DNA of 64,000 bases from Antedon mediterranea (lineage: Eukaryota > Animalia > Echinodermata). Positions within the stretch are counted from its first letter, which is position 1; each line of letters begins with the position of its first letter. Shown here in pieces: positions 35,880 to 62,429 of the stretch. The position numbers were made by a program, and so were the translations under genes. The stretch is taken from the NCBI RefSeq assembly GCF_964355755.1, contig NC_092679.1:20195432-20259431 (forward strand), written 5' to 3'. Below the pieces are notes generated by a model. It saw only the letters and a program-made list of their open reading frames with translations. It searched no databases and was not told the DNA's origin.

Positions 35880-38800
35880 ATGGCTGACTTTCATATATTT
35901 CAACCAGATGATATCGAGATCAAGCATAATCTGGGAGATAAGTTTAATTTATCCTTCGGAATTGTGAAAATTACTGGCGAATCAGTAGCAGTGAAGAAAA
36001 ATGTCACAATTGGCGTGCAGAAACGGGAGTTGGATATATTGAAAGGTCTACAACATACAAATATTGTCCGACTGTTGGGGATTATTGAGAGCGAACAGCA
36101 CACGTCACAAGGGTTAGTACTTGAATATGCACCAAACGGAAGCCTATATGATTTCTTACATAAGAAGCCTAGAACTCAATTCGACTATTTAGATTGGTGC
36201 AAACAGGCCGTACGCTCGGTCGTGTATATCCACAGTAAAGGCATATCGCATAGAGATATAAAATCTAAGAATTATTTAGTTTTTGGAGACACTATCAAGC
36301 TAACTGATTTTGGCTTGTCAAATTTCAAACTTGACGTTACTTCAACTACTTCGCGTAATGTACGCGGTACGATCATTTGGATGTCTCCTGAAGTAATGGA
36401 TGAAGCGGAGGGTGTCGATTATTTTAAAGCAGAGGTATACTCCTTAGGAATAGTTTTGTGGGAATTATATTATAAGAGAAAGCCCTATGAGCATCTAAGT
36501 ATGGCACGTATCACTCAACATGTTCTTAATAAAGGTCATCCAGAAATGGATGATACATGTGACGTACGCTTGCGTGATGTGATGCTGAATTGCTGGAATT
36601 ACCAACCAGACCAAAGACCAAACGCAGAGCAGATTCTGACGTCACTTGATAACGTACCTGAAATATTGGTCAGAAGTAGTTTGAAGGTAATAGTATAATT
36701 ATTAATACCTGTAATTTCTGCAATACAGTACAATGACAACAGGTTTGTAAATACATCATTCGAGTCTGTCAATATATATTTTTGTTACTGTTAATGCTCA
36801 TCTTTTTCCATTAATTAATGAATTTTATATTTGCAGGAAGAAGATCAGACCGCATTTCAACATTTGCTAGCAAACCTCAGCAAAGATTATGCTGGTAATA
36901 AATACCGTTGGTTAAAAATGCTTCTACATGGTATTATACCTAATGGATGTTATGACGATAACTCTACAGGGCTTGACTTATTTAATGAACTTGTTGACAT
37001 TGGAAAGATTTCAATTACTGATGTCACCCTCTTGTCGGATGTTGCTGAAACCACCGAACAGACATCGGCAAAAGATCGTATAGCCGAATATAAAAGGACT
37101 GTACAATGCAGTGAAACATTAGGAACAAGATTAACACCATATCGGAAGGCTCTTTTTGAAGCCCTCAGGAATGTTGGGCGTGATGATTTACGTAATGTCA
37201 TTGGTTTCTACAAAGTTACATTCCATGGCTTTGACAATATATGGGATGTTGTTTTTCACCTTGAGCAACACAAACTATTAGATGATACCCAAGAAAAGTG
37301 TAAACGGTTTGCAGATCTTCTAAACAAAAAGACAGGGAGTATTTTACTAGGTAAATCTTGATAAAATATAATTATACATTTCTGGTTATATCATTTATAA
37401 TAATACTACTTAGTGGAAGAATTTTTCAATTCTAAATAGAATCGGATGTTAGAATATATGTTATAATTGTCCATAATTGTTCTTTTCCCATAGCTGCTCC
37501 AAAAACCCTAATAAGGTAAGAAGACTACCAAAACGAAAAAAATAAGATAACTCGCAATTTAAAAAATCTTTTAGGACAAAACAATAGAAATGATTTATAA
37601 TATAAGAAACAAAGATTTACTAAAGTGATAAATGTTTCGGTAAAGAATTATTAACGTCATGTAGGCCTACATTTTTCTATAAATATAAAACGAATTGAAG
37701 TACGTAGGGATATATACTAATTTTAATGTGTCGAGGTACAATAAATTTGAATAAATATGAATGAATAAATAAACTTTAAAGGAATAAGAAACGGAAGAAT
37801 AAAGTGGTTTAAGAATACGATTTATTTTATCGGAAGAAACAATTGAGGAAAGTATATAATTATTAAGAATTAGAATGTTGTAAGATGCAAATGAAACACG
37901 GTAAATAAATGTTAATAGAAATGCGTGCGTTTGTTTTTGCGTGTAACATTTTACCTGATAAAATGAACTTGAAGTATTAGTAAAACACCACTACTCAAGA
38001 GGAATTATGCTAAGGCATTGAAGAATTAGTTTTTAGATATTTTTCTGAACAGGCTCAGAATGAATTTCTGACTGTGTGCGTCATGAGAAGGTACGTGGAA
38101 AACCCCGTCATATGGGTCGTTGATTTGTCCGTAGTCATTGCATTTTGCCGGGGATTCCCTATCATTTAAGTATTTCCGTAGTACCCTATTTATCTTCATT
38201 TCTCTACGTCCCTAATATTGGGCAGAATTTCTGTAGTAATTACGGACGTTCCGAACTTTGAAATAACAGTGTTTAATTGCTTCTTTCTGCAAATTCTCTT
38301 TCATATTTTCTTTTCTGGAGTGAAGCAACACTGTTGTACATTTTAGTGAATAAATGAAAATGATTTTTTTAAATTGTTGTTTTACTGACTTACTTAGCAT
38401 TTATTGAAAAATAATACAATTCAACGTTTTGCTCAATATATTTATAGCAGCAATTATTAATTGATAATAGGCCTAGTAATTAGTTTGGGGACTTCCTCTG
38501 ACGTTCGCATTCGCAACAAATGTTATCCTTAGTCACATTTTTATCCGAATTATTACTCATTTTGTTTGTATATTGACATGATAATGTGTTCATTTATTCT
38601 GTGCATGTTAAAATATGTTAAATGCATATCGCCGCAAATTACTCAATTATTATTTTTGTGTTGGGTCTGATATGTTCGTTTTATTTATGCACATGTGTTC
38701 TTAAGACCAAAGCTCCATGATAAACATTGAATTACTCCTGTATTGTATTAAAAACCAAATCAAATGAAGACGTTTTATTAAATTTATTTTTTTTATCACT

Positions 38801-41800
38801 AATTTTCTTGTTGATTCTGCTTGTATTGATGTGTGAGTTCCTGATAATCCTATTTGTTCCTTAGGTCACCTAAGCAATGGAAGGAAAAACGTTTTAATTA
38901 AATTTCTTTTTTTTTCTTAGCATTTCTTTTTTCATAGCCAAACTATTAATACGCCGTCTGTACTAAGAGAGTATCACTGACAGTTGAATTTGTTTTTCGC
39001 CAAGACTCCATGATACAACTAAACTGGAATGAAAACAACAAATCTAATAAATGCAAATTGTAGTGGAATAACGTTAAGAATGATAAAAAAATAAAATAAA
39101 AAATACTATACAACAAAGCATGAGATGCGATAACTAATAGCAAAAACAATAGCACGGTCTAATATATGCGTGAATGGCGCGCCATAGAAATCTGTTGTGG
39201 CTGAAACTGTCTGGTGATATTCGTCAACACGAATACGCTTTACGAATATGAAATGGGGATCAGCTCAAAGGTTTAACAAAATGTGTGATGTATCCGTTTT
39301 CGTTATCGTATTCGTAAGGTTGCGAAAACTCCCTATTATTGGATAAAAACGTGAACTTGGTGGAAGATTTCATTTATAGAAATTGTTACATACATTACAC
39401 AACTGTTTCTTTTTTTTTCACAGATGATATCCATAATATTAGGTAAGGAATCGGATGCCAGATAGTGGGGTTTTCAGAAAATAAGTCACTTTACAACTTT
39501 TAACAAGTATTTTGATCTCCGATTTTGTTCGTACACGCATTCACAGTGTAATTTACCCTGCATTTACGTCAGAGTAGGATAAAGCACCAACTAAAATAAA
39601 TCTTGATTTTGAAAGTTTAGCAGCAAATCTATACCATAATACTAGTATTTGATAAATACATTAATTTGCCAATTTCACAGTCTGAAACCGGCACTAACTT
39701 TACTCTTTATTAAAAATAATGGATTGATATTTGTACAAATTTAGAGATGGAACACCTCAACAACATTTGGATACACATTCCAAACCAGACCAAAGGCTAA
39801 ACGTGAGTGTAATGCCACTTGATAACAAAACTGAAACACTCGTCACTAGTAGTAGTAGACCTAGCGCCAGGCAAAAAGAAAAACAAAAATCAGGAATACA
39901 CACGGTAGGATAATATGAACTTGTATAGTTGGCCTAGTGACCTCGGAATGCCAAACAATTCCTCATAAACAATTTAATTTATGGTTTTTAGGTTTAGATC
40001 ATTATTAGTTGGTTTGTGACTTTTGGATGACTATGAAAAACGGTTTCTTTTTCTCAAATTCCAAACAATAATTCGTTTCTTATATCTACTGTTTTCTAGA
40101 CTTGGCTATGTATAGCACTGGGTGTGGTGATGGTAGGTGTCGCAATACATTATACAGCACCGACTCACGAACTTACCACAGAGTTTGTTAGGGACACGGC
40201 CGCAGCACCAACTCGCGAACCTACGACAGAACCAGTTGAAGACACTACTACAGCACCAGCTCCCGAACCTACCACAGAGTCTGTTAGGGACACGACCACA
40301 GCACCAACTCGCGAACCTACGACAAAACCAGTTGAAGACACTACTACAGCACCAGCTCCCGAACCTACCACAGAGTTTGTTAGGGAAACGACCACAGCAC
40401 CAACTCGCGAACCTACGACAGAACCAGTTGAAGACACTACTACAGCACCAGCTCCCGAACCTACCACAGAGTATGTTAGGGAAACGACCGCAGCATCAAC
40501 TCGCGAGCCTACTACTAAAGCACCAACTCCGGAACCTACGTCATCAGAGTCGATAACAACACACTCCAAAGATAAGAAAAAAGAAGAGCCTAAACGAATA
40601 ATCAAAAATAGGCGTGAAAAGGTAAAACGTTTTACTTATTAACTATTACATTATTTCAGCGTCAGGGGCATACGCTCTGGAATAGTCTTTGTATCACCAC
40701 CCGACAGTGATTTAGTTCACTTTTGGGGTGCCCTGTCTTATTTTCTGGCTGTTATTTATTGTTTTGTTTATTGTTTTGAGACGAATAAATGAAATGAAAT
40801 GAAATAAAATTGTATAAATTTAAAAAAAAGGACGCAAAAAGTGTCTGGTTAAGAAAAATAATACAACGTGTTGGAATTTAATTTAGTATGTAATACAGGA
40901 GCACCACAAAGATGCGTCCTTTCTCCTGTATTGTCAGCATATATACACATGAGTTTAAAATTAAATTTGATGACTGCGTTTTAATTAAGTACACCGATGA
41001 CAGTGTTATAACTGGATCTATTAAGGATAATAATGAATTAAACTATACAGTCAATAAATAATTTTGGCACATGGTGTTGTAATAATTTAGTACGAACTAA
41101 AAAGATCATTTTTGACTTTAGACGCTCTATTAAAAGCCATAATTGGCTCCAATTGTCATAACTATCAATGAACAAAATATTGAAATTGTAGAGGAGTTTA
41201 AGTATTTTAGTGTTGTGCTTGATAACAACATTAATTGGAAAGCCAACACTTTATCTAAATCCAAAAGAGCAAGACAGAGAATGGTTTTCCTCCGAAAACT
41301 TAAAACATTCAATATTACATGTGACATTCTTAACCTTTTTAAGTGTTCTTTTATTCGGCTCTATTGTCTGGTTCTCGAATCTTACTGAAAAATACCAAAC
41401 TAGCTGAAATTGTAGTGTGCCAGTAAAATCATCGACATTAGCCTTGAACTTTTATTTCGCTTCGTGAAAGGGGCATCCTAAAAACTGTAAATACAATTCG
41501 TCAGGATCCTGATTACCCTCTTTAAGCTTAGCCAAACTGGTAGACTGATCACTCTGAATCAAACACTAAACGTTGCCGACAATAATTTGTTATTGTTTAT
41601 AGTTCGTATGGTCTCTTTAGATTCATTGGTTACACGCTTTTTCTTTGAATTCATTGTAAATTGCATGTAAATCAAAATGTAAACCTTCCAACCAAATTCG
41701 TTGTTAAAATGACAATAAATAATATCGTATCGTATTGTATCGAAGGCTTTATATAAAATTAATTTTGCACTGTTCTTTTTGATTTGTTTTTAATAGTCAA

Positions 41801-42844
41801 ATACAGATAGCGAACAAGCTACAAAATCAGGTAGGTATACACGCATATTATTATGAAGGATAATACCCTAGTTAAAATGTAACTAGTGTTCCTGACTATA
41901 TTCTGCTCACTTTCACTTTACAACAGGACATGGTCTACGTAATCTGTATTAAACCTGTAGATTCGAAGATATTTTGACCCGTATGAAAAACCCTCCGTAG
42001 GTCCACTCTTATTTAAGTGTTGATATAAGTGCCATCACTTTTTAAATAGCTTCTTTTTATGACGAGGTTTTTCATTTCTTTAATGTGCATGTTTGGTTAG
42101 TGTCTGAATATTAAAACTCTTCTCTTTAGCATCTGCCTACATATTTTTTTTTTGGAAATTGTCCCCATTGGAGGACTAAACTTTGGATTTAACTTTGACC
42201 ATATTTTCATTCTTTAGGGAGTTTTTTTAATGATTTCAACTACGAAATCGAATATGCTAACTGGGAGCATTTTGGTTCAGAAAAATGGGGAAAATGCCGT
42301 AAACAACATTATAAGAAAAGAAATAAAACTGTTGATTTAGGAAGCCGTTATTCAAAAACAGGAGGTAAAATGGTTTAATCATATATGCATTGACAATCCG
42401 ATAAATCATTCAATTATTTCGACAATAAACTGATCGTAATTTTAAATGTTGTTAGCAAATATGCCTATCTAATTTATAATTTCAGATGATTATTACATTT
42501 GTGTTGCAATCAATCGTGGTGATAGTAGGCCTGAATCCACCAAAGGGGGCTATCTTAATAGTTCAAAAATTCCAGACGAATGGGATGAAGCGTGCCTTAC
42601 ATTTGAATACTTCATTACTGACGGACAAATTGATGTAGATCATTATAAAAATGGCAAACCTGAAAACGTGTTCACCAGTGGTTATACTAAAGGAAAATGG
42701 AAACCTGCAAGAGTTACTATTAATACTGTCGATATAAAAATATCCTACTTGTTGATTGGCGGAAAAGTATCTGGTGATGACACAGAGGTAGTTGCTATTG
42801 ACGATATTGATCTTACTGATGGTCCTTGTACACCAGAGGATTAG
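35880..42844 (+). CDS. Gene A: TKL-type Ser/Thr kinase - tandem DED - TM - mucin stalk - MAM-like domain (predicted type II membrane protein, about 846 aa)
   Basis: Exons: 35880-36686 kinase (VAVK, HRDIKSKN, DFG, GTIIWMSPE); 36837-37350 DED-DED; optional phase 1->2 micro-exons 37494-37515 or 39424-39442; linker 39745/39747-39904; 40100-40621 (TM WLCIALGVVMVGVAIHY, then T/P/E repeats); 41797-41830; 42218-42364; 42486-42844 (CLTFEY..W..A.V.I..VAIDDIDL..GPC, MAM-like, TAG). An in-frame path exists, but the join across 37350-39747 is inferred by analogy with gene C. Confidence 0.7.
40155..40540 (+). repeat. Coding 96-bp (2 x 48-bp) tandem repeat forming the mucin stalk of gene A
   Basis: cagcaccaactcgcgaacc at 40203, 40299 and 40395; encodes TTAPTREPTTEPVEDTTTAPAPEPTTE.VR.T. 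Confidence 0.95.
40880..41722 (+). mobile_element. Decayed Rex1/Babar- or L2-like LINE fragment in a gene A intron
   Basis: Frameshifted RT remnants NTGAPQRCVLSP, IKYTDDSVI, IEIVEEFKYF.VVLDNNINWKANT, ARQRMVFLRKLKTFNI; tail aataaataatatcgtatcgtattgtatcg. Confidence 0.75.
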
Positions 42845-43703: not shown

Positions 43704-43742
<39 letters not shown>

Positions 43743-44344
43743 TTGTGTCTGTGTCTAACCAAATAATGTTATTTTCTTGCCTAGCCATGTATAATACACA
43801 AAAGTTGGAATTTCCATTCCAGTTGCAATAATACGCAAAAAAATAACTCGTGAGAAAATCGATTGAAATTGATTTGCTAAATAGTGCAGCGTGAGATTAT
43901 ATCGATTAAAACTCATTCGTTGATAATTGCAATGTGGTATGCACAAAATAATCGTTGGCATTTTTTGGTAATCGATTGAAATAATAAATTCGTAGAAACT
44001 GCAGTGGTACGTAACAATGACTGTTGAATTGTGCTTTTGCGATTAAATCGATTGAAATGAATTTGTCGATAACTGCAATGGGATTGACACAAACAAGCTT
44101 TTTGAATGTGAATTTTCTTTTGTGAGGAAATCGATTGGAATGAATTCTTCGATAGTTGTAGTGGTGCGCAAAAATACCTGGTTAAATGTGGTTGCTTTAT
44201 TACACATCGCATCACCTTATCAAATAGATGTTAAACATCACTCGTGAAGAATGGTAAGTATACAGCCTTCAGATTACATTGTGTACTATGATTATCATTA
44301 ATTCACGATAACATTGTTAATAAAGGTTTCTGACAAACTAATTC

Positions 44345-47300
44345 TCGTTGTGAGCGGACGTGTTCATATCGAGCTCCGCTAGGCTACCCATTGTGTGGAT
44401 ACTAGGCCAGTCAACGTAGGCATACTGTAGTCTACATGATGTGTTCGACCGGGCTACGTGTGCCGCTACTTATTTTGAACTTATTTCTTGGCCTCTATTT
44501 TTCAAGTTTTAATATGGGATTTTCATCCAGAAATCAATGGCTAAGGCCAGTCGATGGATACTCTGAGCCGGTAAGCTGCAACATTCCTAGCACCGTTGTA
44601 TGTAAATGTTGGAATTTGTATCTATGCGGTCAAAGCAGTACGACTACGTAGTACGAGTGTTGTTGCATTCCAACGTAGCAGCAGACCGTCAAGGAAGATC
44701 TACAGCGCACCACGTTTGCTCTATTCTAATTCCACTGTTACATTCTGTATTCTTTTAAGTGGCGATGTTGAATCGAATCCAGGTCCAGGTAATACTCAGA
44801 CATCTTCAGTTAAGGTATACTATCAAAACGTACGTAGCCTGAAGAATAAAATGGACGTATACAACTCAGATCTGAATGCACACCTAATTCAGAGCAATTT
44901 GGATATTGTCGCACTTACGGAAACATGGTTAAACTGCAACGTGCTCGATTCTGAACTTTCCGTTTCTAATTACACTTTATTTCGACGCGATAGAGATACT
45001 GATAAACGCGGTGGTGGTATCCTGATGCTAGTGAATAACAAATTTACCTGTAACCGAGTGGAACGCCTAGAAAGTGATTCAACGGAGTTCATGTGGATAG
45101 AGATTCAGCTAAAGCGGCGTAGTAGCCTACTTGTTGGATTATTCTATAGACCACCAAACGCTACACCCGATGTCCTCCGTCGTTTTACTTCGTCTGTGGA
45201 AATCGCTATGCTCTACTACAAAAACAGTGAATTCCTCATTCTTGGAGATTTCAACCTGCCCGAAATTAATTGGAGTAGTAACCCTTATTCTGCTCCAGCT
45301 CAGTCCATGGGAGAACACTTACTTGATGTATTGCTTTCTAGCTGTGGCCTATTTCAATGCAATACGTACTGTACAAGAATGGATAAAATGCTTGATCTTG
45401 TTATTTGTAGTAAAAACATTTCCGACAAAGTCTATACTGCTAACGATATTTTTTTATCTGACCACTCATCTTTGAGAATTGATTTCCGTTTAAATTTTGA
45501 TGTTAAATGTAGTAATGATAATTTGAATCGTAAAAGTATAATTTACAATTTTAAAGCACTTGATGTCAATAATCTATGTAATACTCTTAACTGTGTTCCA
45601 TGGAGTGTCTTAATTGATTTTGAAGGTGATTTAAATGAAGCTTTGGATATGTTTTATAATTTGTTAAATGCTGCCGTCAATGACACAGTGCCTAAAATTA
45701 GAAAGCGCAGAAAGCTTCCTCCGTGGTTTGACAATGAGTTGAGAAGTGCGCTTCAACTCAAAGAAAAGTATTATAGATATCTGAAAAAAAATAATAATCG
45801 GTTAGCCCAAAGTAATTTCAAATTTGCTCGCGCGTCTTTTAAAAAAATGTGCAATAAAAAGTACAAAGATTACTTGGACTCTTTGGCTAAGCAAATTGTC
45901 ACTAACAGTAAAAGATTCTGGAGCTGGATGAAAACTAAATACAAGTCAAATAATCTTCCTTCTGTCATGAGTCACGATAACATTTCATTCCAGTCTAATT
46001 ATGATAAAGCTACCACATTTAATTCTTATTTTCATTCTTTTTTCAGTGAGCCTTCTCCGGACGTTCCCCGGGACTATCCAGGTCTTCCTGACTATGCGGT
46101 GGATAACTTAAGTTCTCTGTCTGTGAATCAGCATTCTGTGGAAAAGGCACTTAGTAACATTGATATCAATAAAGCTACTGGCATTGATCAGATTAGTAAC
46201 GTTGTCTTAAAGGGTGCCTCCTCCTCACTCTCTTATCCGCTTTGCAAATTGTTTCAGCTATCTATTAATTCTGGGGTTTTTCCTTCATCTTGGAAACACG
46301 CTAATATTGTCCCAATTCACAAGAGTGGTCCCAAAAAACTAATCTGTAACTATCGTCCTATTTCGTTATTGCCTACTATGTCTAAGATTTTTGAGCGCAT
46401 TGTGCATGATGGTTTGTCATCACATGTTGATAATGCTTTAAGTCCTAGGCAGCATGGTTTTGTCTCTGGGAGATCATGTCAAACCAACCTCGCACTGCTT
46501 CTTGCTACATCATACGATGCAATTAACAGCAAGAAGCAGTGCGATGTGATTTACACTGATTTCTCTAAGGCTTTTGATTCCGTTTCCCATGATTTGCTTA
46601 TTTTTAAACTTTCAAAATTTGGTTTATCCGGTTCACTGTTAAGTTGGTTTAAAAGCTATTTAACTAATAGACAACAGCGTGTTGTCATTGGGGGAGAGAC
46701 ATCTGATTGGCTCCCTGTGTTATCGGGCGTTCCGCAGGGCTCGATCCTGGGCCCGCTTTTGTTTAATTTATTTATCAACGATCTTCCTTTAAAATTTAAT
46801 CATTCCGAGTCTCTTTTATTTGCTGACGATCTGAAATTGTTTAAAGTGATTACCACTCCACAGGATGCTTTTTCACTTCAGGAGGATCTGGATGGTCTCG
46901 TGGAATGGACAGAGAAGTGGGGGATAAAACTTAATGCTAATAAATGCAGATATTTATCTATAACACTTAAAAAAAGGCCTGTGCTCTTCAAATATAATCT
47001 GAGTGGACATGATCTTGAGATGGTTTATGTATGGAAAGATTTAGGTATTTTTATTGATAGTAAATTAAATTTTTGTTCACATATTAATCATGTGTTGTCA
47101 AAAGCTAATAGAATGATGGGCTTAATATGGAGAAATTGTAGGTTTATGAACGACGGCAGGGCACTTTTATCTTTATACAAATCTATTATACGTCCTCACC
47201 TTGAATATTGTTCCGCAATTTTCAATTCAATTTCTCCATGTCAGGCCCGTCGAATCGACAATGTTCAACGGAAGTTTGTTCGATTCCTGTCTTATAACTG

Positions 47301-47809
47301 TGTTAATTTTGCCTTTTCCATTGATTCTGTCAGCAATCGTCGAACGATATCTGATATGGTTTTTTTATATAATATTTTAAATTCTAAATATGACTGTTCA
47401 TTAATTTCACTATTTAGTTTAAATGTTCCTGGTCGTACACGAAACAGACATTTATTGCATATTCCTTTTAGCCGTGTCGACTGTACTAAGAGGGGACTTT
47501 TTCATAGACTACCTTATACATTTAATAATCTAAATAGCAATCATATCGATATTTTTAATGATAGACTTGGTTATTTTAAGAGGACGATGATGTGTTCACT
47601 TCTTGAACAGTCTGCATAACCTGTTTTAATTGAAATTTTTTATGGCATGCCAATCTATGTTTTATATTTATATATATATATTTTATCTGTATTTTATTGT
47701 TAACCGTTTTTGATGTTGTATTGTTTTATGTTTCAAACCTGTTAGTGGCGGTATTTATCGCTGTTGGTTTTGATTGAATAAAATAAAAATAAAATAAAAT
47801 AAAAAAAAA
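44345..47809 (+). mobile_element. CR1-like non-LTR retrotransposon (APE+RT frame 44596-47619) with an N-terminal 2A-like peptide
   Basis: YQNVRSL, LTETWL, LGDFNLP, SDH, DFSKAFDSV, SGVPQGSILGPLLF, LFADD; LLSGDVESNPGP at 44752-44787; (TAAAA)n tail at about 47779-47809. The 5' boundary is approximate. Confidence 0.93.
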
Positions 47810-47961
47810 TTTGAAAATGTATTTTTGTCGATAGAGTCCAGGACTTGTGAAGAATGCTTATGATACCGATTAGGTCATGATTAGGCCTATACAATCAAAA
47901 TGTCTTCATCTCATTCATTGATTTCAAATATTTAATCTTGTTTAGGCCTATTTTTTTTTAG

Positions 47962-49135: not shown

Positions 49136-52009
49136 TATGCCTAAAATGCATGATTGTAAATCCCAGTTCTCATGGTATTAACATAATAATGTTCATCTAT
49201 TTTATTTCAATTGGTTTATTTATTATTTAAAAAAAAATCATTGACACCTTTGTCGTTTCATATTTAGAGTCACTGAAATATATATGCTTGTAATAATATA
49301 TAGTCGTTCACTGACTCCATAATGTTTTTATGTCACATGCAAGATCACAAAAAATGATAGTAAATGCTAGTTCTACGTGGTATTAGCAAATAATGTTCAT
49401 CTATTGTATTTCATTTGGTTTACTGTATTTAAATTTTAAAAATTATCATTAATACATTTGTTTAAAAATTTATAATTGTTTATTTTTCACTTCCTATTAA
49501 GGATCACGGAAATCTATATACTTGTAATAAATATAGTCGTTCAATTCACAGTATTTTATGTACCAAATCAAAATTGTAGGCCGGATCTACTAATTCGTGT
49601 TCGGTAAAACATGCGGTTGCGTGTTTAATGGCTCTATATGGATGATCTATAATTTCTGTGATTTGAAGCTTCACAAGTAAACGAAAACGTTTCATTGATC
49701 GAAAGACATCTACTGTAGTAGATTAAAAATGCACGAGGTTTGAATTCCATGCACATTGTTGTGTGTAGCTACCACATGCGTACTCAAATAGTACCTGCGG
49801 TCTTTTTCTCTTTTCTCCATTAGTTTCTTCAATTCAGATAAGGTAAGAACTGAAACTTGTCATACGACTATATTCTATTCATGATAAATAGACGTATTAC
49901 TATATGTTGTTTACATTTAAAAAGAGTTTCGTTAAAATTTCAAATGTTCTATAATAGCCGTGATTCCAAATTCATTGCACACTATGTCCACCGGGCCGAT
50001 ACTCACGACGTTCGTGCTTGAACACTTTCTACTTTCTTCACACGTCACACATTCATGTCGGGTATGAATATATTCTACTACGGTATAGTATAGCGTGTAA
50101 CGCATAGGCATAGAGTACTGTTAATCCATTTTGTAACATCTTAACTACTGTATGATATATATATAGGAATATCCTTGTCATCCTTTGGTTTGCAAGTTAC
50201 ATTTTCATTTTTGGTAAAGGTGTTTATGGTTTTTTATTAGTGTAAAGATTTATCGTCAAGCTGTATTTGATTGATGACAATTTAATCGAATTAAACATGG
50301 TTGTGGTACATAGCTCAGATTGTCTGCATTTATTTATTGAAACTACGTGTTACTTTTAAACGGTCGCCATTCCAGCTCGTCTGTACACACTCAATGACAT
50401 GTATATAGTTTTTCCGGTTACCCAAATGTGTTTTGTAAAGACGCACAGCATATCTCGTGATTACTAGACAATAACATGTTGATGATTGTATGGATAGGGC
50501 CCAGATTAGACTCACATAACCTGTGTTAATTTCTTGAATTGTTTCAATAACTTTATAAAATATTATACAAAGTATTAGTAGTAGGCTTATCCATATTAAA
50601 GAACAACCTCATCATGCGAATCCTTGAGCCGTTCATGATTATTCATTTTGCGAGCCGATCATCCAAGACATGTAAACGCGGGCCAACAAATGAGGGGATA
50701 CGACCCCACATATCGCAATAGTATAACCATAGAGATATTATCTCTATGATAAAACCATGAGAAATAATAACATGCATTTATAGGAATTTTGTCAAAAGCC
50801 GTTTTAGGAAATCGGTTGGATAAAAATAGATATTTGTGATTTGCAATTTCATTTTATTTTGAGAGTATACAAACAAGAAGTGTAAGTTGAATGGAGAGAT
50901 CATTCCCTCCATTCAACGAATACAAAACATTTGTTATGCGTTAATATAAATGACGCATCCCTAGTAATTATTTAATTTATCAACAGAAAACACCGCTTTC
51001 ATCTATGTGATTTCAAAGCGGGACTTGAACCTTAGAAGCGGGATGCAGAGTATCCTCCCTCTTGTCATTAAAATAATTAATATTTTATATTCGTCGAGTA
51101 AAAGAACAGCAAATCTACAAGAAAAACAATTCTCCTCAATTTAACTTATGTGAACCAGGGTGGTTATACCATAGAGATATTATAGTTCACTATAATATCT
51201 CTATGGTTATACCAGGGAAGAGTTAAACTCTTCCCTGGTTATACGTACACTCCCTTATAAACATTCATCATTGTATAGGCCTAATAATCACCGGCACGCG
51301 ATACAAAATCAACCAATCAAATGGATACACTTGGACTAATATAATCAATGCATAACAATGCAAATTCCGATGCATATCCTATTTGGAGTAGTGTTAAGAA
51401 TGCTTATACTTTTTTATTTCTTATATTTTTTATACGTTATTTAATGGAGTCCGTCACATTATTTATTTCTTTAAAATGTTGGTATGAATTCCTTTAATTG
51501 GGCAACGACTAAACTACGTTTACGTTTGTTCGTTGACCAACGAATTAAACTGTATACTACATTTGCATTTATTTTTGTTTGTATACCTTTGTTTTTCATT
51601 TTGGTAACTGTAGTATTTGTCCTGGGTCCTAGTAAGTATCTACTTAGGCCGTGCTAATAATGCTTTCTGATCTCTTTTTGCTTGCATTTTTATATTTTGT
51701 TATGTCATTATTTAAATATTAGTGTTTATGAAATTTAAACTGAACTGATTTACATTGATGAAGTACTTTCGTAACGGCCATGTATTACGGTCCAAAAATG
51801 ATGACGATCTTTGTATCATGGATTGATTTAGTTTAAACGAAATAAATAACAACAAGCTGTATTTTTATACTTTGGAATTTCCTGGCCTTTTGTGATTCAA
51901 ATTGATTGAAATTACTAGTTCATGCATACTCAATTAGTGTTAAGGCCGAAATACATACATGATACAGTGCATCACAGATATCGATGTTTGACTTCAGAAT
52001 TTTGAAAGC

Positions 52010-54722
52010 ATGGTAAGTAGCTTATTTAAAAAAAACTGTATTTAGTACTCGGTTACAACTAAATACTGGATCTAGATATGCGTCACCATCCGAATTAATC
52101 GAGGACGTACAGGTTTCACTGACGGATCCAGGATTTAAAATAGGGCCGGACGATGAACCCCACCCATTGGATCCACTATGTGTTTAAATTATATTTCATA
52201 GGTGTGTGACTATGCCTATTTTCGGATAGGGATATTTTGCTTTTTGTGAAGATGCTATTTACTTAGTATTGTAGTATATTTAATCCATAATGATGATGTA
52301 TTTATTGATTCATTTAAGAGTAATTCGCAGTATTGTTATTTTATGTGTGAGTTCTTTTAAAAAAAATTTCTTACGACTGTTTTTATTTTCACAGGAAAGA
52401 GATCAGATAAAATTTAAGCAATTTCTAACAGATCTCAGCAAATATTATGTAGGTGTAAATTACCGTTGGTTAAGAATGCTTCTCTTTGGTATTATACCCA
52501 TTCAATGTTTAGAAGTAAGCACTACAGGATTTCAATTATTTAATAACCTTGCTGAATCGGGAAAGATTTCAAAAACTGATGTTACCCTTTTGTCAGAAAT
52601 TGCCGAAGTTACCGAGCAGACATCGGCAAAAGATCGTATAGCAGAATATAAAAAGATCATACAATGCAGGAAGACCAAAACAAAAGTAACACCATATCGA
52701 AAGGCACTTTATAAAACTACTGTGAATATTGGGCCTAATGATTTGCTGAATGTTACTAACTTCTACCCCCTTGCTGCTCGTAACTTCGACGATATATGGG
52801 ATGTTGTTTTCTACCTTGAGAAAGAGAAACACTTAGATGATACGCAGGACAAGTGCAAGACGTTCGCAGATCTGCTAAATGAAACCGCACGAAATATTTT
52901 ACTAGGTAAGTTAGAATCGGTCAAACATACATACATATCTGGTTTAAAATTGTGTTATTTCCAAATGGATGTATAGGAAGAGGAGTTTATTCTATAGTCA
53001 TAACTTTACCCTAAACTTGGAGGTTACATTCGATTCTTAAACATTTCAGAATATTTTTTACTGGATTTTTCAGTGTCGGAACACAGGAGTTATTTTAAAA
53101 CTTTTTTGTTACAGATGCTGCTAAGTCTTTACCTTATCAACACTTGGATATACAGTTCAAACAAACTCATCAGCCTGTAACAGCTCCTTTTCCCGAACCA
53201 AAACGAAGACCAAACGCGGAAGATATGCTGACGTCACGTGATCATGAGGGAACTGAAACATTTGTCCTTAGTAAGCCTATTGCCGGACAAAAAAAGAAAC
53301 ACATATTAGAAAAACACACAGTAAGGATAATATCAACTTGATTTTTTTTATAGGCCCAGTGAGGTTAAACAATTCCTCGCATATAATTTATGTTATTGTT
53401 ATTTAGGTATTAATTACGCGTGATATACTTTTAAATGACTGCGAAAAATTAAGGTTCCTTTTTCACAAAATCCAAACAATATTAAAAATGATTGTCTTAT
53501 ATCTACTATTTTCTAGACTTGTCTATGGATATCACTGATTGTAGTAGCTGTGTTGGTTGCCATCGTTATACAACAATCAGTTATAGAACCGACTACAGAA
53601 CCAGTTATAGAACCGACTACAGAACCAGTTGGAGAAACGACTACAACACTAACAGCGCCCTCCAAAGACGGGAATAAAGAAGAAGCACCCAGAGAAATGA
53701 AGGGAAATAATAGGCATGAAAGGGTAATGTATATTTTTACTGATTACCTTTTGCAAATATATATATAATTCCTCCATGCTATTACATTGTAGTATCATAT
53801 TCAAATGTTAGGAGTATTGACATTAAATGATAGATGTCGATTTTTGTTAGGATATGACGATCATTGGGATAAGTTCTCCTCTATGTGTTGATGTAGGCTA
53901 ATTAGTGTGGTATACGATAAATAAGCACTGATTGTTTTATTTATTTGTTAATAGTCGACAGCTCCAGCTAGAGAACGGACGATCTCAAGCAGTAAGTATA
54001 CATTCAACATTCATACTTATAGAATATCTTCTTTTACAGATATACAGCCGTGTTAGGAGGCAAAGTCAGTTTAAAATAAATTAAACAGAAGTATTTCAGT
54101 GTACGGTTACATAGCATATGCCTACATATTTGTTAGTATGATTTTATTTTAAAGGTATTTTGAATGATTTCAACCACAAAAACATTAATTATGCTGGCTG
54201 GGAGGATCATGGTAGCGAAAATTGGGAGATACACAATAAAATAATTAATTCCGGCTACAATTTAGGAGAGCGTTACTCAGGATCAGGTAAAGCATAATTA
54301 TTCTTACTTTTTTTTTCAATAACCCTGACTGACGTCATATTTTGATAGCAATTAGAACTATGGATTTTATAATTTCAGATAATTATTACATCTATGTTGC
54401 AAAAAATGGCAGAGAATCCAGAAAGAAGGGCTACCTTAACAGTCCAGAAATACCAGACGAATGGGACGACGTGTGTCTCAAATTTGATTATTATATTAGT
54501 AACAGGGATTCACAAATCGATGTAGATCACATTTTTAACGGCGAACATAAAAAGGGATTCAAAAGCCCCAAACATCGTCATGAACAATGGAACTCTGCAA
54601 CCGTTACCATCAATACTGTCAATAAACAAAATTCCTACTTTATGTTTTGCGGAAAAGCATCTGGTAGCGGTAAACAAATAGTTGTTATTGACGATATTAG
54701 TTTTAGTGAGGGCGAATGTTAA
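52010..54722 (+). CDS. Gene C: tandem DED - linker - TM - short Thr/Pro stalk - MAM-like domain (predicted type II membrane protein, 479 aa)
   Basis: Clean 7-exon model totalling 1440 nt with no stops: 52010-52012 (ATG|gtaagt), 52395-52905 (DED-DED), 53115-53320, 53517-53723 (TM CLWISLIVVAVLVAIVI after basic KKKHILEKHT), 53955-53991, 54155-54286, 54379-54722 (CLKFDYY..W.SATVTI..VIDDISFSEGEC*). Confidence 0.85.
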
Positions 54723-55701
54723 GTTTTCTATATGATACATGTAAGATCTGGGTAACATCAAACGGTTAACAAAAATGGTAACCGTAAATACGAATACCAG
54801 TACTACATGTAGATGGTATTTTTCAAAACTAAAATATAAATTATTCCACTACTTATTACATTTTAATTTATTCCCTCTCTAGGCATACAACTTTTTTTTT
54901 TTCAAATGTAGGCCTATAATTATGTACATTTACATTTTATTTCATGTTTAGAGACACGGAAATCTATGCTTGTGTAGTCTTAAACCATAAAGTTGATTAT
55001 ATTTTGGGTTTTTTTAGGTTCTTAATAAAAATTTATATAACTAATGTCGAAGTTTTCCTTTCAAATTGAAATTTAAAGAGAATTTATTACACTTTAATAT
55101 TAAAACAAATATAAATGATTTAAGTTCGGCATACAAGTTCGTACATTTTTCTAAAACCTAAGCATGAAGCCGAGTGCTGCAGTATTACATACATATATTA
55201 ATACATACATCTGGAAATATTTTACGCGTCTTGTGATAATTGTGTTTGGCGTGGCCACAATACCTGGTGTATATAAACTTGCTCCATGCATTAGGTGTAC
55301 CTACGTCAACTGTTAACATATACTGTCGTTCCCATGTATGATAACTAGGAGGAGGAAGTACATCTAAACCTATGTTGTGTGGTTTCCGTACACTATTTCC
55401 TGTGACGCAAGTACAGTTGACAGTTTGGCTGTATGTATTTCCTATGATGAAATTTACTGTCATAATTCCATTCGACTTCAAAGTACGCTCTCTTTATTCT
55501 ACGAAGGAATTAGCCTAAACGAACCAGCAGTTAGAATCAAAACCATTCATATTATAATTTGTATTTTTATACTTTGGAATTTCCTGTGTGAGTTATGAAT
55601 TGAAATTAACTGATGCATAACATTAAAGTGGTAAAAATAATTGTGTTTAAAATGGTGGCCTAAATAGAATGTATCGAAGTTATAGCAGCACTATGTGAAG
55701 C

Positions 55702-57857
55702 ATGGTAAGTACAGTCTATTTTTTGGGATTGTATTAGCAAAATTACCATCTGGCAAATACTGACTAATAATACATTGTACCTGATATTCCACTATATCCT
55801 CCTCTATCGAGTGATGTTACTAGGCCTAGTTTATCTTACCATCGACGTAGGCCCATCAGTGTAATGGCATTACCTCGGTGAACGTCTTCATTATAGGCCT
55901 ATTGATAGGATTGTTTTAGATTCAGAATGCTATATAATCGTGAAATGGAAAGACATTTTAACTATGGTACGTTGTTTTTTAACGATGAATTCATATGAGT
56001 CATGCTCAATAACACGTTTTCTTTCCTGCTGTAATTTATGTTTCCAGATAACTCAATAATAATAACAGTTTCATACAGCGTAATTTATCAATAATGTTTA
56101 TGACTCGTCATAAGCATAGCAGCTTTATTTATGCTAATGCCATATCTTTTTTACTGATAAATTTTGAATTTATAGGATACTGATCAGATCAAATTTAAGC
56201 AATTTCTAACAGATCTCAGCAAAGACTATGTCGGTTTAAAGTATCGTTGGTTAAGAATGCTTCTACATGGTATTATACCTATTGGATGTTTAGAAGTTAG
56301 CACTATAGGACTTCAATTATTCAATGAACTTGTTGAACTTGGAAAAATTTCAAAAACTGATGTAAGCCTTTTGTCAGAGGTTGCTGAAACCACCGAACAG
56401 ACATTGGCAAAAAATCGTATCGTCGATTATAAAAGGACTATACAATGCAGTGAAACATAGGAACCAGTTTAACATCATATCGAAGGGCACTTTTCGAAGC
56501 CCTCAGGAATGTTGGGCGTGATGATTTACTTAAGGTTATTGGTTTTTATGCACTGAAAGACTATGGCTTTAACAATATATGGGATGTTGTTTTTTACCTT
56601 GAGAAAGAGAAACTCTTAGATACACAGGACAAGCTAAAACTATTTGCAGATCTCCTGAACGAAATGGCACGAAGTATTTTACTAGGTAAATTAGACTAGA
56701 GAAGATTAAGAGGATCTCGGACAGTATACTGTTAATCTTTTCTAAATTGAGAGTATCATTATCATTGGTCTAGAAAGTTAGTTATAAGTGCATTGATTTC
56801 TCAATGGTTAGCATACCCTTACCATAGATTATTATGAACAACTATTGCCTGAGCATATTTAAACTTGGGGAAAGGTTTCATTAGAGTTTTAATCTTAATG
56901 TGTATTTATGAAATTGTACGTTACGTTAAATGTTTCCATTTATTCTTTTCAGCAGCCGCTCCCAAGACTCTGTAAAGAAGGTGAGAATAATGACTTCACC
57001 AAAAATAATCTTAATGAATTACCTCTGAAAAATTATTATAATGGTCCAGCAATGACGTAATGGTCAAATTGTTTGTATATTATATGTAGTTAATGTATTT
57101 ATGCTTACACCATGATGCTGGAATTGAATTAAATTGACAATTCTCATCCCTTTGTCCGACAAGTAGTCCCATTAAAAAATATTTGAAACGTTTTTAGCAT
57201 CAGTCCATATTTATTTAATGCGATAATACTGTCCAAATATAGAGAGAAAACCACTTCTTCACCACACGTCAATGCTCCTTTGGATTGGCAAAAAGAAGGA
57301 CTCCGACGAATAAAGGAAAATGATCTTAAGAGAAGTTATTCTGGGACGGTAGGCTGTCTATCTATTAAGTATAACTGAATTTTTGAAATAGAAAGGAGTA
57401 GTTATTGGACCTTGTTCTGAACCCCTGACATTATATTCAAATTTGACACTAATAAATAAACATTTCTGTCGTCTCACATGACACTGGTATTCTGAAGACG
57501 CGTAGGCCTCCAAAACGATAGTTTATAATGTCCGTGTTTTCATTGTAGCTTAATTATGTATTTTTAATTGGCCTGGTATTTTATTGTATTGTATTGTTCA
57601 TAACGATCGTTGTTCAGACGTTAGAAAAAGAAGATAAATAACTTTTATTTATTTTAACATTACAGGTGAGAGTATATGATCGAGAATTTAAGTTTGATGG
57701 TGGCCATGAATGGTGGAAGTTTTTTTCAACAGCTACCGATATTGAAACTGGAATTAAAGCGAAAGCAGGGGGTTACAAATCAATGGGTGGAGCAAATGAA
57801 CATGCTATCGAAAACCTAATTTATAAACTAATTGCGCAGGGTATCATAAGAAATTAG
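55702..57857 (+). pseudogene. Gene D: tandem-DED gene with a frameshift, followed by exons encoding an ALF-like or dsRBD-like C-terminal domain
   Basis: ATG|gtaagt at 55702-55704. The DED exon 56176-56685 has a 1-nt deletion near 56457 relative to gene A (gaaacataggaacc vs gaaacattaggaaca), giving TAG at 56458-56460. Micro-exon 56953-56980 (AAPKTL*) is homologous to 37494-37515 but carries TAA. Phase-compatible exons 57243-57348 and 57666-57857 follow. Confidence 0.6.
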
Positions 57858-58293
57858 ATATTTGTATTGTGCTAACAATATTTGTAATAAACTGAATTGT
57901 ATATAAAAAGTACTTTAAAAGTTAGCCCTGACTTCTCTTCTACTTTGATCAATGTAAAAAGACGACAGGCAATGCTTCTGACTGTAAAAGAAATATGCTG
58001 ATTAAAGATTTAATATAAGAAACGTTTGATACACAAAATAAGGTTATTGTTAATAAACCCTTTATCCACTGCTGAATACTGCAGGTTATTGCTGCTAATT
58101 GACTATTTTTAAAAGCTGACAGTATTATACACGAACGAGCACTTACAAAACACAAATCATACGTAGGCCATATCGTATTGTTACATGTTTTCTTTATGTT
58201 CATGGGAAATATTTCCAATTTGTGTTCAAACCGATCCATGCATGCTCTTCCGTATTCGATATTGAATAGTTAATTTTTTGACAGTCAGATAGC

Positions 58294-59112
58294 ATGGATA
58301 CCTTACGTGTATTTCGACCAAATGAGATCGAGATCCAGAAAGAAGCAATGAAAGGTGTTAATGGGAAATGGGGAGTTGTATTAGATACTCGCAGGTCAGT
58401 AGTGGTGAAGACTGTCCCAATTGGTCTACAGAAAAGGGAGGTAGATATATTGAAGAACCTACGACACGAAAATGTTATCCAACTGTTGGGGACTATTGAG
58501 TATGAACTGCCCACGTCAGCATCGTTAGTGCTTGAATATACACCCGACGGAAGCCTATATGATTTCTTACATAAGACAAGACCTCAATTCGACTACTTAG
58601 ATTGGTGCAAACAGGCCGTACGGTCGGTGGAGTATATTCACCGTCACGAAATATTGCATAACGACATACAATCGAAGAATTATTTAGTGTTTGGAAATAT
58701 TATCAAATTAACCGAATTCGGCTTTTCGGAATTCCAACATCAAGACGCTACCTCACGTACTTTTCGCGATACAATTCTCTGGAAGTCTCCCGAAGTTATG
58801 AATAGATATACAAGTGTGGGCCTACATTTTAAACAAGATGTATACTCCTTAGGAGTAGTCTTATGGGAATTGTATCACAAGAAGGAGCCATACAAAGTTC
58901 TGAGTATTGTAGAAATTATTCAACATGTGGTTAACAATAAAGGTTATTTAGAAATTGATGATACATGTGACGTACGCTTGCGTGATGTGATGCTGAATTG
59001 CTGGATGTACCAACCAGACCAAAGACCAACAGCAGAGAAAATTCTGGATTCACTCGAAAACAAAACAGAATTATTTGTGCGAAATACTTCATGGAAAAAA
59101 GAGAAACATAAA
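58294..59112 (+). CDS. Gene E kinase exon: predicted pseudokinase, paralogue of the gene A kinase
   Basis: Strong similarity to 35880-36686 (LVLEY..GSLYDFLH..QFDYLDWCKQAVRSV, DDTCDVRLRDVMLNCW.YQPDQRP), but HRDIKS is HNDIQS, DFG is EFG and GT-WMSPE is DT-WKSPE. Phase-0 donor AAA|gtaagg at 59112. Confidence 0.85.
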
Positions 59113-59649
59113 GTAAGGATAGTACCTAGATTTATTTTATATTTAAGGCATAGTAGTGCAAGTCAAAATCTTAAAGAATTGAACATGCATGTTTAAATGT
59201 CTGCCTCATGAATAACCATATTTATATGGCCCCTGTCTCGTGGCGGGGCCCTTCTGAATCGCTTGGCTCTGGTGATACAGCATAGGCCTTCCTAGCTTGG
59301 GCCTTGCATTCAAACGCCGCTTTTAACACAGAAATTTTAACCCAATAAAAATGTTATTTCATTAAACAATTAAATTACAAGTTCAAATATTATTTATAGT
59401 TTTGAAAATTCTACGTTTAAGTGTAAGTTGAACTGTATATTCAAGGTTATAAATACATTATTTCTAGTCGTTCTTCGTAAACGGGAAATTACAACTTTAT
59501 CGTCCTCAAAAAGTTAAGACGACGGAATTACGCTAAGCTCCGCCCAATTTGTTAAAGCTCATGCATAAATTATTCATGAGCACCGTTCTGTGGCTTCCCG
59601 TCGTGTTTCGTAAAGTCCCTATTGTTAGAAATTTGATTATTGACTTGTC

Positions 59650-60052
59650 CACGTATATAAGATATACCATGATGTAGATTCCACTTTTTTAGCAGACAAT
59701 TTTTACAAAGATTTCTAAACAACAGGCTACTGTACGAGGAAATAAAAAATGGACATTTTGTAATTCCTAATATCAAAGGGTTAGCTTCGAAAACATTTTA
59801 ATATAATACTATTAAATATTGGAATAATCTTTCATCAAACATTAAAGGTATAAAAACACTTAATGAGTATAAAAGTGCTATAAAGCTTTATCTTAGTAAT
59901 GTGCATAGCTAGACTGATAGTCTTGTGAACTGTTATATTTTTGTGAATTTTTCTATGTTTTTGTTTTAAGGACCTCATTGGAATTAAGCTTTTTTTTTAG
60001 CTTTATGGGTAAATCCTTGGTATGTTGATTGGACCGAATAAAACAAACAAGC
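59650..60052 (+). mobile_element. 3' remnant of a CR1/L2-type LINE
   Basis: Degenerate C-terminal frame FVIPNIKGLASKTF*YNTIKYWNNLSSNIKGIKTLNEYKSAIKLYL, then a 3' UTR with aataaaacaaacaa. Confidence 0.6.
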
Positions 60053-60059
60053 AAAATCT

Positions 60060-60830
60060 TATCCTTTGGTTGATTTAAGACTTTCTCCTAATTTGTTTTT
60101 GGGAGTTGTATTTATGTTTATGTTGTGATGTTTCAATGCTCTTCTTAATCTTTCAATCATTCCTTCCACGTACGGTAAATCGATGTTTACTCTGGATTTT
60201 TCGCTATCTGTTGTTTAGTTATTTCTTTGTCTTTATTTGTTTTCTTATGTTCATTTTTGTTCTTGACTCTTTCGAAACTCAAGTTTGGATATCCGCATGT
60301 TGATAATGTTGCTTTAATGTGACTCATTTCTTGTTATTGTCCTTCTGTCGATGCGATGGATTCACATCTATTCACTAAATACTAGGGTGTTGACTACGCT
60401 GAGTTTGTGTTTGAGTAGGTGGTTAGATTAGAAGTGCAGGTATGTATGTGTACATTTTCTATACATTGATGTTTCTATTGTCTTGGATGGTGATAAGAGT
60501 ATTGAGGAAAGGGATGGTATTGTTTTGCATGTTCTCCATATTGAATTTTATTTGGCCTGTCTGGTCAATGGTGTTCAAATATTGGAGGAGTTCTTCTAAT
60601 CCAATTGGTACGATTGCCAGGATGTCATCTACATATCTGCGCCAGAATATCGGTGTGATGTTGCTGTTTCTGTGGCACGTTGTCTTCCGTGAACATATTC
60701 GCCATTATGGGGCTAACAGGGCTACCCATTGCCATTCCCGCCTTCTGTTTAAAAAATCACCATCAAACGTAAAATATGTTTTGTTAAGAACGAGACTCAA
60801 CAGCTCTGAAGATAGCCGAAACGTAGCAAG
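60060..60830 (-). mobile_element. Penelope-like element RT fragment
   Basis: Minus-strand GMAMGSPVSPIMANMFTE..WRRYVDDILAIV..LNTIDQTGQIKFNME..IPFLNTLI (PLE-type RT motifs), with stops and indels. Confidence 0.8.
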
Positions 60831-61717
60831 AAGTACGAGAATTCACAAATATTATATTGAATGTTTATTTTTTTGCTGAACGGTTTTATTTAGTCTAAGA
60901 GTATCTACAGACCTACGATAGAAGAATAAGAGCTGCAATAGGTACTTTGTTGCCGTCTGTGTTTAGTATGGTACATTGTAGACTTGCCCCAAGTCTGTAT
61001 TCATGTCTTTTTTTATTTATTTGTTTTTATTTGATTTTTGTCTCAAGTAGTATACGTATGAAACGCCATATGTGCCAAAATATTTATCTTTTTACTAATA
61101 TTAAAACAAAACTCCGTCTGGAACCCAGACTAGGTACATTGTTATAAATACGAAATGCAAATAATTATTTAAAGTTTATTACTGCAGTTGGGAAATATAT
61201 TTTAAAGGCGTAGCGGTGAAATAAACTATGCGACTGTCATGTCTAATTAATTTTATCATAAGCAAATTCATCAAACATCCAATGTGTCAGAATTTACAAG
61301 TATTCGGTGAGCGATACCAACACAAAAACATTCAAATTTAAACAATTAATTTGGACTCATTTTGCAACAAGTTTTTATTTCGGAAGTTCCCATGGTGCTA
61401 AATAAATCACCGTGTCTATTTTTTCGTTCCTGTGAACGACAGGTATTATTTAGTCCTGCGGTACACAACATAGCCTTATAGCCGTACATTGAAAATCGCC
61501 AGTTTTTTTACACCGAAATTACCGTGTATTCGAGAACCATCTGGCATCTAGTATGTTTAGAATTTGAAATAGGTAAGTATTAATGCCTATGCAATTTTCT
61601 GCAATACAGTACAATTACATCAGTTTTCAAATACATCATTCGAGTCTGCCAATATATAATTTTGTTAATGTTAATATGCTCTTATTTTTCCCTTATTGAT
61701 GATTTTTTTAATTACAG

Positions 61718-62231
61718 GAAACAGATAAGACCGCATTTCAAGATTTGTTAGCAAACCTCAGCAAAGAATGTGTTGGTGATAAATACCTTCGGTTAAGAAT
61801 GCTTCTACATGACATTATACCAAGTGGAAATTTAGAAGATAGTACTACAGCACTAGAATTATTCAATGAACTTGATGACATTGGAAAGATTTCAGTTACT
61901 GATGTCACCCTCTTGTCAGATGTTGCTGAAACCACCAAACAGATATCGGCAAAAACACTTATAGCCGAATATAAACAGACTGTACAATGCAGTGAAACAA
62001 TAGGAACAAGATTAACACTATACCGAAAGAAACTTTTTGAAGCTCTAACTGATGTTGGCTCTGATAATTTTCATACTGTTATTAATTCTTACAAACTTAA
62101 AGGCCGTAACTTTAAAAATATATGGGATGTTGTTTTCCACCTTGAGAAAGAGGAACTGTTTGATAATACCAAAGAAAAGTGTAAACGGTTTGCAAATCTA
62201 CTAAGCAAAAAGTCAAAAAGCAAATTACTAG
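61718..62231 (+). CDS. Tandem-DED exon (fourth copy); spliced from the gene E pseudokinase or from an upstream exon ending near 61572
   Basis: ag|GAAACAGATAAG..TTACTAG|gt with an open frame, homologous to 36837-37350. The preceding intron (61590-61717) is homologous to 36710-36836. A possible next micro-exon lies at 62368-62387. Confidence 0.85.
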
Positions 62232-62429
62232 GTAATCACTCTTACTTGATGTTTTTTAATTAAAAGAATTATTTCCTAACTGGTGTAGGCATTCAATCAG
62301 TACCTGGGGAATGTCCTCTCCTATAATATAGTGAAAATGATTACGTCTTCAAAGTTAATTATTTCAGAAATTAAAGTAGAAAAAGAGGTACTTCAGACAG
62401 AAAATGACCTTGGTGTATTTCCTGATTAC

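Follow-up and report, generated by a model that had tools for sequence, protein, structure and literature searches.

A 64,000-nucleotide stretch of the genome of the crinoid Antedon mediterranea (contig NC_092679.1; the whole stretch is called the window, and positions are counted from its first letter) contains a tandem cluster of five related receptor-like units on the + strand, named A, S, B, C and D. The window has the composition of AT-rich animal DNA, and the unit models were built from the DNA. An initial annotation, made from the letters without database searches, had described four tandem-DED exons, two kinase exons, three hydrophobic-anchor exons and three MAM exon pairs, reused with conserved intron phases.

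Organization of the cluster

Pfam recovers the two kinase exons, the four DED exons and the three MAM exon pairs on the + strand where they had been placed, and the intron phases are indeed common to the units. The DED exons are entered at phase 0 and left at phase 1, with unit C deviating through a frameshift; in the unit models the anchor exons enter at phase 0 and the MAM exons at phase 1. All modelled introns of the five units are GT-AG. The exon copies within the cluster share 69-93% DNA identity, and the MAM exons of units S and A have an identical run of 124 nt in common. Pairwise dN/dS is 0.55-0.88 for seven long-exon pairs and 0.57-1.54 for three short pairs. Only two of the three hydrophobic exons, those of A and B, are long enough for a membrane anchor; the third, in S, looks like a signal peptide. 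All three MAM pairs exceed the Pfam PF00629 gathering score of 26.4 bits (A, 40.3; S, 34.7; B, 54.8).

Unit A (35880-42844) encodes a protein of 853 amino acids (aa) in eight exons, with the order kinase-DED-DED-linker-transmembrane segment (TM)-Pro/Thr repeats-MAM. The model was built independently and agrees in every residue with the RefSeq protein P0001 (XP_071963970; two XP accessions), including a micro-exon of 19 nt. Exon 1 (35880-36686) encodes a MAP3K/TKL-like kinase (Pfam PK_Tyr_Ser-Thr E 1.3e-44) whose best matches among single-domain PDB chains are DLK, ZAK and TAK1. VAVK, HRD (HRDIKSKN) and DFG are kept, the Gly-loop is degenerate and the subdomain IX Asp is replaced by Glu. By its motifs (catalytic Lys, HRD, DFG) the kinase appears to retain what an active TKL/MAP3K kinase needs for catalysis. 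The tandem-DED exon (36837-37350, phase 0 to 1; Pfam DED E 2.2e-8) is followed by the 19-nt micro-exon used in P0001 (39424-39442). A candidate alternative micro-exon of 22 nt (37494-37515, phase 1 to 2) resembles the linker micro-exon of the paralogues and would be mutually exclusive with it. The unit model continues with a cytoplasmic linker exon with a basic stretch at its end (39745-39904), an anchor exon with a predicted TM followed by mucin-like Pro/Thr repeats (40100-40621), a small stalk exon that matches P0001 (41797-41830), and the MAM exon pair (42218-42364 and 42486-42844, with the stop; Pfam E 3.7e-10).

Unit S (44251-49135) gives a short product, with 177 aa encoded by an ATG exon, a short hydrophobic exon and MAM. 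The start codon (44251-44253) lies at the end of an exon that shares homology with the start exons of units B and C; 0 and 2 of 2000 shuffles reach the alignment scores, although the shuffles do not preserve the splice consensus. The predicted intron 1 contains a LINE endonuclease-reverse transcriptase open reading frame (ORF) of 1014 aa (44575-47616, +; Pfam). The hydrophobic exon (47962-48013) can be aligned to the anchor exons of units A and B at scores that 0-2 of 2000 shuffles attain, again with the splice consensus not preserved. Since this exon is too short for a membrane anchor and comes directly after the ATG exon, it has the look of a signal peptide. The same homologous exon would therefore act as a signal peptide directly after an ATG and as a signal-anchor behind DED exons. 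The MAM exon pair of S (48201-48323 and 48780-49135) has a Pfam E of 2e-8.

Unit B (52010-54722) encodes DED-DED-linker-TM-MAM in 479 aa, and the RefSeq protein P0009 corresponds to the last 451 aa of this model. The predicted ATG exon end (52010-52012) is homologous to the start exons of S and C, and the paralogue P0006 begins likewise. The tandem-DED exon (52395-52905; Pfam DED E 1.4e-7) has ends at which contigs of sequencing run X1 start and stop. It is followed by a cytoplasmic linker exon (53115-53320, from the unit model) and an anchor exon with a predicted TM and a short Pro/Thr stalk (53517-53723; hydropathy KD19 2.81). The stalk exon (53955-53991) and the two MAM exons (54155-54286 and 54379-54722; Pfam E 1.2e-14) match P0009. 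PDB sequence searches with unit B and with its MAM exon gave nothing significant.

In unit C (55702-57857), which is broken in this assembly, a frameshifted DED exon is followed by a stop-bearing micro-exon and a C-terminal domain termed X, and there is no anchor exon. The ATG exon end (55702-55704) precedes a tandem-DED exon (56176-56685) that is frameshifted near 56457 and matches Pfam DED in two pieces (E 9.8e-6 and 6.5e-4). Contigs of runs X1 and X4 have an extra base at this frameshift, and their source may be P0005, a close paralogue, or an allele that is intact. The micro-exon (56953-56980) contains the in-frame stop, and the spliced contig discussed below has a 28-nt insert at the same position. 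The exons at 57243-57348 and 57666-57857 encode X, a cysteine-free alpha-beta4-alpha domain whose fold was examined on the aligned paralogue P0006.

Unit D (58294-62231) has a kinase and two DEDs. In the kinase exon (58294-59112; Pfam PK_Tyr_Ser-Thr E 1.7e-40) HRD is changed to HND and DFG to EFG, so from its motifs the kinase is likely impaired. An exact look-up of the unspliced kinase ORF was negative. The tandem-DED exon (61718-62231; Pfam DED E 3.8e-9) may be followed by a micro-exon at 62368-62387, and no anchor or outer-domain exon of D is recognisable within the 64-kb window.

Fold and predicted topology

Of the DED exons, that of unit D alone exceeds the Pfam gathering score; for A, B and D the match covers just the first DED. 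An AlphaFold2 model of the A exon, made from 28 sequences, has a pLDDT of 93.7 and a pTM of 0.87. The best Foldseek match of this model is the caspase-8 tandem DED 4ZBW (E 6e-5, TMq 0.70, 181 columns), and all nine matches at E<=0.001 are caspase-8 or cFLIP prodomains. The whole exon is thus modelled as a caspase-8-like tandem DED, with two DED folds packed as in the prodomain. Both Pfam and the fold search give DED and not Death domain. The DED and MAM folds proposed initially hold.

The topology was judged from hydropathy (KD19) and the charge bias of Lys and Arg (K/R). There are more K/R before the anchor than after it in all six anchored paralogues (5/1, 6/4, 4/2, 5/3, 5/2 and 5/0; A is 5/1 and B is 5/0). 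No N-terminal hydrophobic leader was seen by hydropathy in the anchored proteins. The charge bias and the absent leader together predict that the DEDs and kinase are inside and the stalk and MAM outside, as in a type II protein. The anchor is located after the DEDs, and there is no Pfam match to TNFR.

A second outer domain

Five annotated paralogues (P0002-P0006) end in X in place of MAM. By sequence, X matches no Pfam family at E<=10, including the anti-LPS factor (ALF) family, and no PDB sequence. No short stand-alone homologue was found in a search of limited sensitivity; X was seen only behind DEDs. A model from five sequences (pLDDT 89.2) has a helix, four strands and a helix, with no clear third helix. 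The top Foldseek match is the anti-LPS factor 2JOB (E 0.053, TMq 0.59). The same structure is first in VIA (Z 8.5, rmsd 4.7, 86 aligned residues) and is the only one of 48,161 with Z>=8. An anti-LPS factor is also at the top in the ESM Atlas (structure TM 0.74 over 83 residues; a feature score of 0.79 is a lead only). The three structure searches agree on the anti-LPS-factor fold, although each is modest alone, and the assignment of this fold to X is modest as well. A dsRBD fold is the next, less probable candidate, with a lower Z and fewer aligned residues in VIA.

Transcript evidence

Run X1 is labelled only as guessed RNA, yet it contains a spliced contig; the three further runs are DNA of one sample. 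The spliced contig (contig 5, 610 nt) maps to 56496-56683, 57241-57347 and 57665-57856, with 28 unplaced bases after the first block. The 28 bases have the length of the micro-exon, and the joins are the predicted C-type splice sites. The contig is closer to P0005 than to the unit C version. It therefore shows DED-to-X splicing for an anchor-less form. Further contigs of X1 begin or end at the borders of DED exons. The linker and anchor exons of A and the anchor and MAM exons of B are not covered by this run, which is evidence neither way there; the contig comparison for A reached 40135. The DED-TM-MAM joins are thus predicted, from gene models and their agreement with RefSeq. RefSeq also lists isoforms X1 and X2 with and without the TM (P0004/P0003). 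Given how the RefSeq pipeline works, these isoforms and the two accessions for P0001 may point to transcript support.

In run X2 the contig depth is about 62-67 over 52413-57744 (B-C), as against about 36-38 over 39311-40135, 47900-49840 and 58064-61925 (parts of A, S and D). This gap may reflect hemizygosity or a collapsed duplicate, and depth is a poor measure here.

Relatives of the DED module

The first DED exon has 11 homologues among 713 candidates, all from Antedon mediterranea, and eight of them are on one contig (25 Mb). Their architectures are kinase-DED2-TM-MAM, kinase-DED2-TM-X, DED2-TM-X with and without the TM exon, DED2-TM-MAM, and a kinase fragment-DED2-X. A DED profile search of 1.84 billion representatives gave 199 matches, 150 of which were listed. 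A strong hydrophobic segment occurs in 21 of 156 proteins of the DED family. Pfam was run on 104 of 145 further DED proteins, and in these 104 related DED pairs occur on NACHT (NLR), ROCO, TRIM, caspase, TIR and Rel proteins. Two Antedon proteins on other contigs are DED2-TM-fibrinogen (P0091) and DED2-TM-FN3-like (P0133), the FN3 domain being deduced from likeness to a weakly matched segment of P0042. Both match a different DED subtype in the profile, which suggests separate origins. The one named match from Anneissia has DED2 with hydrophobic segments and no ectodomain.

A quick DED tree, which left out eight duplicate or isoform proteins and units below 40 bits or 130 positions and from which P0091 and P0133 are absent, places the eight rows of the cluster within a 13-row clade with two NLRs (SH-aLRT 98). 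Within the same 67-row group, a clade (99) unites two caspases with a TIR protein. P0074 is a tandem-DED caspase of Antedon, the species of the cluster.

The same DED family also contains a tandem-DED-TIR protein (P0112), a tandem-DED-Rel homology domain protein (P0144) and, besides P0074, the tandem-DED caspase P0117. The DED-Rel fusion is unusual in itself. The Antedon NACHT proteins P0042 and P0016 have a hydrophobic segment between the DEDs and NACHT, and may be membrane NLRs or fused gene models.

Flanking sequence

Exons resembling DLST (dihydrolipoamide succinyltransferase; about 12700-16400, +) and exons resembling a DOMON/copper monooxygenase of MOXD1/DBH type (about 22670-34372, +) flank the cluster on its upstream side; both are presumptive identities, named by eye from motifs. 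They are useful synteny anchors. A long open LINE-type ORF of 1158 aa is present at 24985-28458 (-), and shorter reverse-transcriptase-like remnants are at about 41100-41400 and 60400-60900. Two intronless ORFs (62778-63998, +) come directly after a 60-bp tandem repeat (62426-62631), and the second contains a PC4 domain (Pfam E 5e-9). Exact look-ups of both were negative. The ORFs and the repeat look like the edge of a mobile element, which may cut off unit D.

Interpretation

The cluster represents a genuine receptor-like family, undescribed and so far specific to Antedon, among the domain-shuffled death-fold receptors of marine invertebrates. The DED-TM-MAM architecture proposed in the initial annotation gains support from the identity of model A with P0001, the inclusion of P0009 in model B and a charge bias that fits type II. 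MAM is present as had been claimed, but the proposal took in too little: the outer domain is exchangeable, MAM being one of several versions, and X (57243-57857) had been missed. The suggested mixture of members is borne out in so far as a pseudogene (C), a degenerate-kinase member (D) and an anchor-less member (S) exist. A fast-evolving locus had also been suggested. The fast change is there; the dN/dS values reflect fast drift or change and give no sign of positive selection.

The favored reading, with a probability of roughly 0.6, is that the tandem cluster encodes lineage-specific type II immune receptors which signal by direct DED docking and have an exchangeable outer domain, MAM or ALF-like. 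The ligand, the DED partner and the immune role are putative. In such a receptor the tandem DED would be inside, preceded in some members by a MAP3K-like kinase, and would be followed by one signal-anchor, a Pro/Thr stalk and the exchangeable domain outside. The outer domain would likely sense microbial or non-self surfaces. By extension from caspase-8 and cFLIP biology, a multivalent ligand would cluster the receptors, and the clustered tandem DEDs could template DED-DED assembly with the animal's own tandem-DED effectors without a FADD-type adaptor. The DED effectors recruited would be a caspase and possibly TIR or Rel proteins. Kinase-bearing members may trans-activate within the same cluster, adding phosphorylation. 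S, the anchor-less C-type forms and D with its degenerate kinase would be modulators or decaying copies.

A wider scheme is tentative and, taken as a whole, doubtful. It would make these proteins part of a feather-star class of inverted, adaptor-free receptors in which a constant DED2, with or without kinase, receives plug-in sensors (MAM, the cysteine-free ALF fold, fibrinogen, FN3) and is wired to DED-caspase, DED-TIR and DED-Rel proteins. Skipping or loss of the anchor exon would give a cytosolic ALF-fold sensor, and dropping the DED exon would turn the anchor into the signal peptide of a soluble decoy.

Several observations weigh against the reading as type II immune receptors. The A anchor is only moderately hydrophobic (KD19 2.08), and that of P0008 is below the hydropathy threshold used. 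RefSeq starts unit B (P0009) 28 residues downstream, which would cut the first DED; the RefSeq models are predictions, and the sole spliced contig is of the anchor-less form. The DED-TM-ectodomain form was seen in one species only (nine of ten named matches are from Antedon, one is from Anneissia). Unit C, one of the five, is broken, and none of the 11 annotated homologues corresponds to D. Positive selection is unsupported by the pairwise ratios of the long exons, and the sole ratio above 1 rests on 39 codons. For X, dsRBDs come next in VIA (Z 7.1, 69 aligned). Its sequences also have no cysteine in five of five aligned, and its last exon has 9 K/R against 8 Asp/Glu, with no cationic excess; X is therefore read as ALF-like in fold and not as an ALF.

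The same architecture could instead serve adhesion or self/non-self receptors, in which homophilic or allelic MAM binding, and not the sensing of microbes, triggers or restrains cell death during development, autotomy or regeneration. In PTPmu and meprins the MAM domain serves adhesion, and the paralogous MAM exons of the cluster are just 41-77% identical. The A anchor, S and D have about half the depth of B-C in one DNA sample, which is a weak hint of haplotype variation. However, the scaffold also carries the ALF-like fold and elsewhere fibrinogen, both typical of invertebrate microbial recognition in the pertinent passages of PMC6213531, and NLRs are among the nearest DED relatives. An adhesion role is considered unlikely.

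It is less probable again that the proteins are membrane-tethered DED inhibitors, sinks of the cFLIP or vFLIP kind that keep DED caspases inactive. Tandem DEDs that lack a protease are inhibitory in cFLIP-S and vFLIP, both are among the fold matches, and unit B has no enzyme domain; however, the variable outer domains and the intact kinase motifs in A and P0002 suggest a ligand-driven output. Birth-and-death debris of cytosolic DED genes, with the membrane architectures being gene-model fusions or non-functional shuffling products, would explain the broken C, the unannotated and repeat-interrupted D, the LINEs in introns, the high dN/dS and the spliced contig without TM. It is the least probable account; against it, A is open over 853 codons in eight exons with shared phases, the part order is the same in six anchored paralogues, RefSeq has TM-in and TM-out isoforms, and dN/dS is below 1 in all long exons.

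Comparison with known systems

Full-text literature searches found no DED-DED-TM-MAM protein, no DED receptor of type II and no publication about the locus, although similar forms could be contained in supplementary files, in the architecture tables of PMC8195603 or in subscription papers about the immune repertoires of sea urchins or amphioxus. A term search of a 2026 review of sea-cucumber immunity (PMC13673367) returned no passage on such receptors.

The TNFR death receptors (Fas, TNFR1), with FADD and caspase-8, are likewise single-pass receptors linked to a DED caspase, and the tandem DED of the cluster folds like the caspase-8 prodomain. The TNFR proteins, however, have type I topology, a Cys-rich ectodomain and a death domain, and they depend on FADD, whereas the cluster proteins have N-terminal tandem DEDs and are predicted to be type II. 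If the type II immune-receptor reading is true, death-receptor logic can be rebuilt backwards, without FADD. Crinoids are the least studied class of echinoderms, and the reading, if true, would make their immunity accessible through defined receptors and a candidate caspase from the same species.

Bacterial PASTA kinases such as PknB have the kinase inside at the N-terminus, a TM and a C-terminal sensor. The kinase-bearing members share this inverted receptor-kinase layout, as an analogy only, drawn from general knowledge; their kinase is animal MAP3K/TKL-like and is followed by DEDs. To our knowledge a kinase-first type II receptor layout is not known from animals, and the cluster would add one.

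Drosophila PGRP-LC has a type II topology. In the PGRP-LC/IMD pathway, as outlined in passages of PMC10268257, the cytoplasmic part of a membrane pattern receptor also seeds an assembly upstream of a DED-type caspase and NF-kB. That system uses a cRHIM, IMD and FADD, with no DED or kinase on the receptor in those passages, and the likeness does not imply homology.

Passages of PMC8195603 describe an oyster expansion of receptors with a Cys-rich ectodomain, a TM, a DED and TRADD-N. Here too, a membrane receptor that incorporates a DED has expanded in one lineage. The claim that the architecture was undescribed stands in that no such family was found in the literature, but it was slightly too bold given these type I receptors with a cytoplasmic DED (PMC8195603). 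As described there, they have one DED with TRADD-N, a constant ectodomain and variable inner effectors, whereas the cluster has a constant inner module and a variable outer domain. The amphioxus "shortcut" receptors, such as TNFR-caspase (PMC2575513, in part), show a similar adaptor-bypassing domain shuffling in a deuterostome invertebrate. They combine an extracellular TNFR with an intracellular caspase, and the passages concerned contain no tandem DED-TM-MAM form. The amphioxus DED caspases covered in part of PMC3196919 are also among the nearest literature.

The anti-LPS factors (PF11630, PDB 2JOB) resemble X as its top fold match in three structure searches. According to passages of PMC6213531 and PMC10672452, the ALFs have a leader and a pair of cysteines as their defining features and are reported only from marine chelicerates and crustaceans. 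Such factors are secreted single-domain peptides (PMC6213531, same passages), whereas X is cysteine-free, has no clear third helix and is fused behind DEDs. If this reading of X is true, an ALF-like fold reported only from marine arthropods would occur in a deuterostome as a signalling ectodomain.

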